Positions 15,842 to 17,103 of a stretch of 64,000 nt of DNA are shown one piece after another. The notes beneath the pieces are model-generated. The model was not told where the DNA came from and did not search any database. It was given only the letters and a program-made list of their open reading frames with translations. Every line of letters begins with the position of its first letter. The first letter of the stretch is position 1. Origin of the DNA: Escherichia coli (GTDB lineage: Bacteria > Pseudomonadota > Gammaproteobacteria > Enterobacterales > Enterobacteriaceae); assembly GCF_003991155.1 (NCBI RefSeq), contig NZ_CP031293.1; one strand, written 5' to 3'. Both the position numbers and the translations under genes were made by a program.

Positions 15842-17103
15842 TCAGGCTGCCTTATGCTGCCGCGCATAAATATACGGCGCGACATACCCCTCGCGGCACA
15901 CATCCAGATAATCCGACCACCACTGCATCATGGCCTTTCTGGCCTCCAGATGCTCCGCTTTATGCACATAGGCCGCCCGCACGCTGTTACGCTCCTAGTG
16001 GCTCATTTGCCGTTCCACCGTATCGCGTGACCAGAGATCCGACTCTACCAGGGCGCTACAGGCCATTGCGCGAAGTCCATGTCCGCACACATCGGTTTTC
16101 GTATCATACCCCATCAGGCGCAGCGCCCGGTTGGTTGTGTTTTCGCTCATTGGCTTGTACGGGTTATGGTCGCCGGGGAATACCAGATCCAGATGGCCGG
16201 AAAGCTCCTGTATCTGTTTCAGAATGGCAATCGCCTGGCGGGAGAGTGGCACGATATGCGGACTACGCATTTTTGCGCCACGCCCCGAAAACCGTACTTT
16301 GTCGATGGCCTCGCGGGTGGCGGGGATGGTCCAGATTTTGTGCCTGAAATCAATCTCGCTCCAGCGGGCGAAACGCAGTTCGCTGGAACGGATGAACAGG
16401 TGCAGTGTCAGCACCACCGCCAGCCGGGTTAACTCCCGGCCCTGCCGGTAATCGCCAATACGATCGAGCAATTCAGGCAACCGCTCCAGCGGTAAAGCGG
16501 GATAGTGATTCTTGACGGGAGAGGCGACTACACCATCCAGATGCTGCGCCGGGTTGCTTTCGGTCAGTCCCTGCTGAACGGCATAGCGCATGATGTTGCT
16601 GAGTTGCTGCCGGGTTCGGGACGCGACTTCCAGAAAGCCCTTATCCTCAATAACCCGCAGCAAAGCCGTGAAATCCTGCGTTTTAAGCGCAGCAACGGGC
16701 AGATGACCAATCGCCGGGAAGATATGGTTTTCCATACTGGCGAGAATACGGGCGGCATAATCAGCCGACCATTTTTTGTTGGTTTTGTGCCAGGCCAGCG
16801 CCACCGCCTTAAAGCACTTTTCAGGGGAGCAGGCGGATTTCTCTGCCATACGCTGTTGCGCCGGGTTGATATTCTGCGCCAGTAGCTTGCGGATACCGTC
16901 GCGCTGTTGCCTGGCTTCTGCCAATGAGACAAGCGGATATGCGCCAAGACTGACTCTGGATTCTTTTCCGTTGAAACGATATTTGAGATACCAGATGCGT
17001 GAACCACCCGGATTGACGAGCAGATACAGACCCTGAGAGTCGGAGAGTTTTACCGGACGGGAAGAAGACTTTAACTTGCGGATTTTAGAATCGTTTAAAG
17101 ACA
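15842..17103 (-). pseudogene. P4-type tyrosine integrase, inactivated by an in-frame TAG before the catalytic Tyr
   Basis: The frame runs MSLNDSKIRKLK...VERQMSH-TAG(15995-15997), then continues in frame as ERNSVRAAYVHKAEHLEARKAMMQWWSDYLDVCREGYVAPYIYARQHKAA to TGA at 15842-15844. Confidence 0.85.

Follow-up and report, generated by a model that had tools for sequence, protein, structure and literature searches.

Does a single base change strand a genomic island in the chromosome of Escherichia coli? The window analysed here, a stretch of 64,000 nucleotides from contig NZ_CP031293.1, contains a P4-type integrase gene (int) next to an asparagine tRNA gene, with an in-frame amber codon close to its 3' end. 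An earlier note on this DNA had proposed that this codon knocks out the integrase just before the catalytic tyrosine, that the decay is very recent, and that the island is probably locked in place. According to our preferred reading, to which we assign a probability of roughly 85%, int belongs to an 18-kb composite island at asnW in an ST457-related lineage, its codon for Gln370 was changed from CAG into the amber codon TAG, and the product is inactive, which leaves the island without an exit of its own.

The integrase gene and its stop codon

The P4-type tyrosine integrase pseudogene spans 1263 bp on the minus strand (15842-17104) and comprises 420 codons and a stop codon, with the break at codon 370. 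It was delineated by its open reading frame, its translation and Pfam matches, and RefSeq, in strains 2016C-3878 and STEFF_1, labels the same span 'tyrosine-type recombinase/integrase, internal stop'. The gene starts with an ATG at 17104-17102; the end at 17103 given in the earlier note is thus one base short of the start codon, while its remaining coordinates are exact. From this ATG the translation reads MSLNDSKIR...VERQMSH up to an in-frame TAG (15997-15995, codon 370), beyond which the frame is uninterrupted for another 50 codons, ERNSVRAAYVHKAEHLEARKAMMQWWSDYLDVCREGYVAPYIYARQHKAA, until the normal TGA at 15844-15842, precisely as had been described. A GTG-started open reading frame of 403 residues (from 17206) was rejected as the true gene, because all homologues begin with MSLNDSKIR; the absence of the 403-residue sequence from the protein collection supports its rejection.

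By chance alone, 50 codons without a stop are not unusual ((61/64)^50, or about 0.09 by our own arithmetic). What decides that the tail is a real part of the gene is not its length, but the exact match of all 50 residues to the intact 420-residue homologues. The stranded 3' part (15842-15994, minus strand; 50 codons and the TGA) still contains the codons of the R376-A-A-Y379 motif and of the C-terminal tail, with the TAT codon of Tyr379 (15968-15970, minus strand) located nine codons 3' of the stop. In the same region, an AGGAG sequence (15996-15992) overlaps the stop codon, and a GTG (15982-15980) that comes 9 nucleotides later opens a 46-codon reading frame starting at the RAAY motif.

Approximately 26 nucleotides past the TGA, RNA folding predicts an intrinsic terminator (15775-15816, minus strand), consisting of a hairpin with an 18-bp stem and a U-run. 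The folding energy of the hairpin is -26.7 kcal/mol (z = -5.4), a stability that no shuffled sequence out of 200 reached, in agreement with the terminator noticed previously at this position. A simple consensus scan missed the hairpin, which is clear on folding. The sole good promoter match upstream of int in the consensus scan is TTGACA-17-TAATAT (17360-17388, minus strand), which lies upstream of the tRNA-Asn gene.

When Gln is placed at codon 370, Pfam recognises three domains in the translation: Arm-DNA-bind_3, also known as DUF4102 (PF13356; residues 3-87, E = 3e-24), Phage_int_M (PF22022; residues 98-191, E = 6e-27) and Phage_integrase (residues 224-384). The solved structure nearest to the N-terminal, arm-type DNA-binding domain is the CP4-like integrase domain 3jtz (E = 5e-33), and the core-binding domain matches the PDB entries 2kkv and 2kj9. 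The succession of arm-binding, central SAM-like and catalytic domains is that of phage P4 and other INT_P4 integrases, and int is 49.8% identical to P4 Int at 98% coverage (tblastn, E = 2e-125). Both the architecture and this identity bear out the original assignment as a P4-type integrase.

We aligned the protein with 14 homologues (76-96% identity) from E. coli, Citrobacter, Salmonella, Klebsiella, Pectobacterium, Dickeya and Sodalis, most of which are 420 residues long (range 419-464). Invariant across the alignment are R239, K278, H342, R345, H369, E371, R372, N373, R376 and Y379. Q370 is invariant among the 14 homologues too, and a paralogue with 53% identity reads MSHQERNSVRAAY as well, so related integrases do read HQERN at the site of the stop codon, as stated in the earlier note. 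None of the aligned homologues ends at residue 369: they extend past it, and the shorter homologue entries are marked as partial or lie on short contigs.

The catalytic set, as assigned from the alignment and established recombinase knowledge, is R239, K278, H342, R345 and H369 together with Y379, which we take to be the nucleophile on the strength of what is known about tyrosine recombinases. The stop codon falls directly after H369, with the result that five of the six catalytic residues are kept and Y379 is lost. Y379 and the 41 residues beyond it remain untranslated in the TAG allele; the complete R-K-H-R-H-Y set is present in one polypeptide in the repaired, or ancestral, protein and absent from the TAG product. 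The match to the Phage_integrase profile extends to position 156 of 172 in the 369-residue product and to position 170 in the repaired protein. The catalytic tyrosine is essential in tyrosine recombinases. Because their established mechanism needs Tyr379, encoded nine codons too late, the 369-residue product should be catalytically dead, as anticipated, although it keeps both DNA-binding domains.

The ancestral allele and the age of the mutation

The nonsense codon (15995-15997, minus strand) differs from the ancestral CAG by a C-to-T transition at nucleotide 1108 of the gene (window 15997). By exact-sequence look-up, the repaired 420-residue protein (P0135) was found on 73 public contigs, and the 369-residue product (P0121) on 86. 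Seven loci (L005-L011) encode the repaired protein in the same pdu-cobUST-ldtA-yeeO-int-Integrase_1 context, and int in these loci differs from that of the window at two nucleotides only. One of them is nucleotide 1108, which is C in the seven assemblies (CAG) and T in the window (TAG), confirming that TAG replaces CAG. The other, nucleotide 181 (window 16924), is C in the seven loci and T in the window, a synonymous difference (CTG to TTG, Leu61). This T is private to the window and is found in no other genome examined, and each of the 28 complete genomes that carry the TAG is one base off the window (in 2016C-3878, which was checked, 16924 is C). Three of the loci (L006, L008 and L010) show just these 2 mismatches over 14,018 bp. 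Since the loci with the intact allele otherwise match the window, the change is a single C-to-T transition on an unchanged background. A 61-mer search for the CAG version in complete RefSeq E. coli genomes did not find it; the exact-protein look-up did.

Among complete RefSeq genomes, the nearest full-length alleles are 94.1-94.8% identical, for example those in G3/10 (asnU) and O145:H28 RM12761 (asnT), both of which encode 420 residues with CAG at codon 370. Compared with these alleles of 94-95% identity, there are 43-48 synonymous and 12-13 non-synonymous differences in the 369 codons ahead of the stop, and 5-6 synonymous and 0 non-synonymous ones in the 50 codons behind it. Therefore, relaxed constraint is not seen in the tail. 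Together with the identity of the loci over 14 kb, these counts uphold the claim that the decay is recent and without further lesions downstream. The locus combines a sense-codon orthologue that is otherwise the same with the loss of an essential residue, as in a nonsense pseudogene. The mutation is probably young, being polymorphic within one lineage and having gathered no second lesion. 'Very recent' holds on a molecular rather than an epidemiological timescale, as the TAG lineage is already present in several countries and host species.

Of 5,426 complete E. coli genomes, 28 contain the exact TAG 61-mer, and in none was a version with one mismatch found. The hosts of TAG carriers include cattle, sheep, pig, chicken, dog, cat, mink and humans, with wastewater as a further source, and the countries recorded for the carriers examined include Japan, Hong Kong and the USA. 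Three carriers, MRY15-117, MRY15-131 and CREC-544, have been published as ST457 (PMC5430464, PMC9860340). A literature search for the island, or for any report of the integrase in ST457, returned nothing specific. We attach a negligible probability to the idea that the stop arose in sequencing or assembly or that the short form is a natural end of the family: the same TAG is present in 28 independent complete genomes and its product on 86 contigs, which rules out an error, and the full-coverage homologues listed are almost all 417-427 residues long, which rules out a natural end at this site.

The gene has also been damaged in other ways. In strain 980-2, which belongs to the same lineage and has the same island, an IS3-adjacent deletion took the 3' part of int along with approximately 7 kb of island DNA; of int, only the initial 504 bp are left (L012 23767-24270), and the inner part of the island is gone. 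In UID2309220003, the match to the island is confined to the same part as in 980-2. Elsewhere in the family, int is disrupted by IS1 in H3, and the protein cluster contains several short or partial forms. Loss of int is thus recurrent and has taken several independent ways, the IS3-associated deletion in 980-2 being a second route. In the integrase of the asnT island in O145:H28 RM12761 (L004 3000-4262), which is full-length and annotated as intact, Lys replaces the invariant catalytic Arg345 (HGLKAM vs HGLRAM); this may be a case of silent inactivation through a missense change.

The asnW island and its mobility

The integration target is the tRNA-Asn (GTT) gene at the asnW position (17266-17341, minus strand; assigned by ARAGORN and synteny), which has yeeO on its other side, and int is located 161 bp downstream of it. 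The local order is yeeN, island, int, tRNA-Asn, yeeO, tRNA-Asn, ldtA, cobTSU and pdu. The borders were found by a repeat search on STEFF_1, the island of which is 100% identical to window positions 1-15841. The tRNA-proximal copy of a 20-bp direct repeat, AATTTGGCTCCTCTGACTGG (the attL core; window 17262-17281), overlaps the 3' end of the tRNA gene, and its exact partner is 18,035 bp away in STEFF_1, at a site about 760 bp left of the first letter of the window. The island thus extends beyond the window on that side; inside the window, the att core is found in the two tRNA genes only. In STEFF_1 (L002), the repeat family occupies 16199-16251 and 34234-34286. As in P4-type islands, int is situated directly downstream of a tRNA gene, and the 3' end of this tRNA gene is repeated at the far end of the element.

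The 18-kb island is a composite of two tandem asn-tRNA elements, because a degenerate third att copy with its arm is present at 6006-6063 (12 of 16 core bases, and 47 bp with 88% identity to the outer arm of the island). The outer element (window 1-4891, continuing to the left of the window; STEFF_1 L002 16497-21891) has lost the integrase of its own. It encodes an Avs2-like STAND NTPase of 1352 residues (PADLOC, E = 7.5e-116), a viperin-like radical-SAM protein (PADLOC pVip, E = 5e-20) and a DUF6375 protein, and looks like an anti-phage defence module. The inner element contains Rhs fragments, IS3, DUF2169, ash and HTH_35 genes, a HigA-like gene and an intact Integrase_1/Phage_int_SAM_2 gene. 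This second recombinase-like gene (13883-14767, plus strand) encodes 294 residues (Integrase_1, PF12835, E = 1e-58; Phage_int_SAM_2, E = 4e-38), and HxLR and LGH...Y motifs are visible in its translation. It adjoins int also in G3/10 (L003) and in the seven loci L005-L011; its copy in RM12761 (L004) is a pseudogene. An excisionase (recombination directionality factor, RDF, of the AlpA/Xis type) was not found by Pfam or annotation among the island genes examined, a set that covers the small open reading frames in part.

By its sequence, int belongs to the P4-type island integrases at asn tRNA genes, a group to which those of pks, the high-pathogenicity island (HPI) and ROD21/EARL also belong (PMC8209727, PMC6035254). 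In E. coli, pks and HPI have P4-like integrases, use the 3' end of asn tRNA genes as attB and are flanked by direct repeats of approximately 17 bp; for pks the site is asnW, asnU or asnV, and the integrase in such islands is probably transcribed from the tRNA promoter (PMC8209727). The HPI of E. coli also provides a precedent for an immobilised asn-tRNA island, fixed through loss of its right repeat (PMC8209727). In the island described here, by contrast, both repeats have been kept and the damage is in the integrase. Unlike phage P4, the element is a cargo island (Avs2-like, viperin-like, Rhs) and not a satellite phage, and its integrase product ends short of the tyrosine. Where E. coli genomes match int at all, the nucleotide identity is in most cases only about 72-74%, and we take these matches to be the HPI and pks integrases. 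The island itself is neither of the two, as its cargo shows: clb and ybt/irp/fyuA genes are not present behind int.

The position of a P4-like integrase beside an Asn-tRNA attL is also shared with ROD21 and the EARL (Enterobacteriaceae-associated ROD21-like) islands, and close homologues of int, with 86-91% identity, are common in Salmonella. The EARL core set consists of an RDF, a MobA/MobL relaxase, TraD, a type IV pilin and an H-NS homologue (PMC6035254). None of these was found in the RefSeq annotation of the identical island or in Pfam scans, in which the small open reading frames were scanned in part. We do not place the island among the EARL/ROD21 elements, since transfer and RDF genes were not found; in their stead it has the Integrase_1 gene, the HigA-like gene, and the HTH_35 and ash genes.

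We envisage that one C-to-T transition turned the Gln370 codon into an amber codon in an otherwise intact gene. The 369-residue product would still bind the arm and core DNA sites, and would be unable to form the 3'-phosphotyrosyl intermediate, so that neither excision nor integration could take place. The island would then have lost its own means of leaving the chromosome, though both of its 20-bp direct repeats are intact. Because the repeats are intact, the integrase is the only broken part seen, and judged from the DNA it is plausible that the mutation locked the island in place. Excision of the asn-tRNA island ROD21 has been studied with integrase and RDF deletion mutants (PMC6035254, PMC6968874): a mutant without the P4-like integrase and the RDF loses excision (PMC6968874), and deletion of the integrase open reading frame alone is reported to have reduced excision without abolishing it (PMC6035254). 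Two things weaken the claim of a lock: helpers might act in trans, and there is no sign that the island excised before the mutation. An empty asnW site was found neither among the seven loci with the intact allele nor among the 24 longest contigs with an identical YeeO, and hence there is no evidence of mobility even with an intact int.

The same observations fit a reading in which the decay is neutral: int was already useless in a composite, IS-riddled island that lacked an RDF and had ceased to excise, and the TAG alters nothing in its stability. Without an RDF the island may indeed have been non-excising already, in which case the mutation would be a consequence and not the cause of immobility. 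The tandem structure with its degenerate internal att remnant and IS3, the failure to recognise an AlpA/Xis-type gene among the island open reading frames examined, the presence of the island at the same site in all the loci and contigs just mentioned, and the independent loss of int through the IS3-associated deletion all agree with this reading. However, the differences from related alleles (43-48 synonymous vs 12-13 non-synonymous upstream of the stop, 5-6 vs 0 downstream) carry a signature of purifying selection over the whole gene, which suggests that int was kept up until very recently. Furthermore, both 20-bp repeats are exact, and RDFs are small and diverse and could be overlooked. We regard neutral decay as possible, at somewhat worse than even odds.

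It is improbable, in our judgement, that the island is not locked at all and is excised at a low level, by a recombinase acting in trans or by read-through of the stop. In low-level read-through of UAG it is mostly Gln that is incorporated, and the wild-type protein would thereby be restored. Candidate recombinases are the integrase with 53% identity, which is intact, of P4 type and located beside a tRNA-Asn with the same core sequence; the HPI integrase in some strains, such as UID2309220009, where an HPI-like element with its own integrase adjoins yeeO; and the adjacent Integrase_1 protein, which is intact with its HxLR and LGH...Y motifs. The residual excision reported for ROD21 after deletion of its integrase open reading frame alone points in the same direction (PMC6035254). 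At 53% identity, however, the arm-site specificity is likely to differ, and the Integrase_1 protein lacks an arm-binding domain and is not known to take part in excision. Four active protomers are needed, for which a rare read-through product should be far too scarce, and neither an empty site nor a relocated copy was seen. Still less probable, and in our view very unlikely, is that the 369-residue protein has a function. As a dominant-negative guard it would hold the att sites at asnW and block excision or integration by related asn-tRNA integrases. Alternatively, AGGAG (15996-15992) and the GTG at 15982 could start a 46-residue, tyrosine-bearing fragment that complements the 369-residue protein in trans, giving a split recombinase of low activity, comparable to the Flp-type recombinases that share active sites between protomers.

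Our preferred reading, a young nonsense mutation that inactivates the integrase and leaves the island without its own exit, describes ordinary gene decay: decay of integrases in tRNA-linked islands is well known, and the lesion had already been flagged by RefSeq. As in other cases of integrase pseudogenisation, one lesion in the recombinase gene of an otherwise intact element would strand the cargo in the chromosome. Unlike in the usual case, the undamaged ancestor survives in sister strains that are one base apart at the locus. The cleanness of this pair is the sole distinctive point, and the case raises no new question. The CAG and TAG strains, otherwise the same over 14 kb, form a natural pair for gauging the role of a cognate integrase in the loss of an island. 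The case also illustrates, as a modest matter, how an island with defence and toxin genes (Avs2-like, viperin-like, Rhs) becomes fixed in the chromosome of an E. coli lineage that is multidrug-resistant and has spread globally.

Neighbouring asn tRNA sites and insertion sequences

The P4-type asn-tRNA integrase with 53% identity lies approximately 24.5 kb to the left of the window in STEFF_1. In this strain (L013 12958-16756), cbl and nac are found beside the tRNA-Asn gene with the different island that contains this integrase. The TAG carrier UID2309220009 (L017 1-5603) has yersiniabactin/HPI-like genes and a separate integrase of 420 residues, at the asn tRNA gene across yeeO. Because of this HPI-like element, we consider the asn sites of the lineage to be still in use by incoming islands.

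In this part of the window (19090-19221), the tRNA-Asn gene at 19090-19165 is directly followed by ldtA, and cbl and nac are not located between asn tRNA genes as they are in K-12. This arrangement suggests, from gene order, a rearrangement in which asn tRNA genes recombined with one another. Between the two islands, 2016C-3878 and STEFF_1 differ in the order and orientation of the segment, with IS3 copies at the points of divergence, suggestive of an IS3-mediated inversion between the two arrangements.

A copy of IS1 (767-768 bp; window 25996-26762) is inserted in the divergent intergenic region between pduA and pduF and is flanked by a 9-bp target duplication, TGTTCTCTA. It is missing from 2016C-3878, which is otherwise nearly identical in this region. 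The insertion could affect the regulation of the pdu operon.
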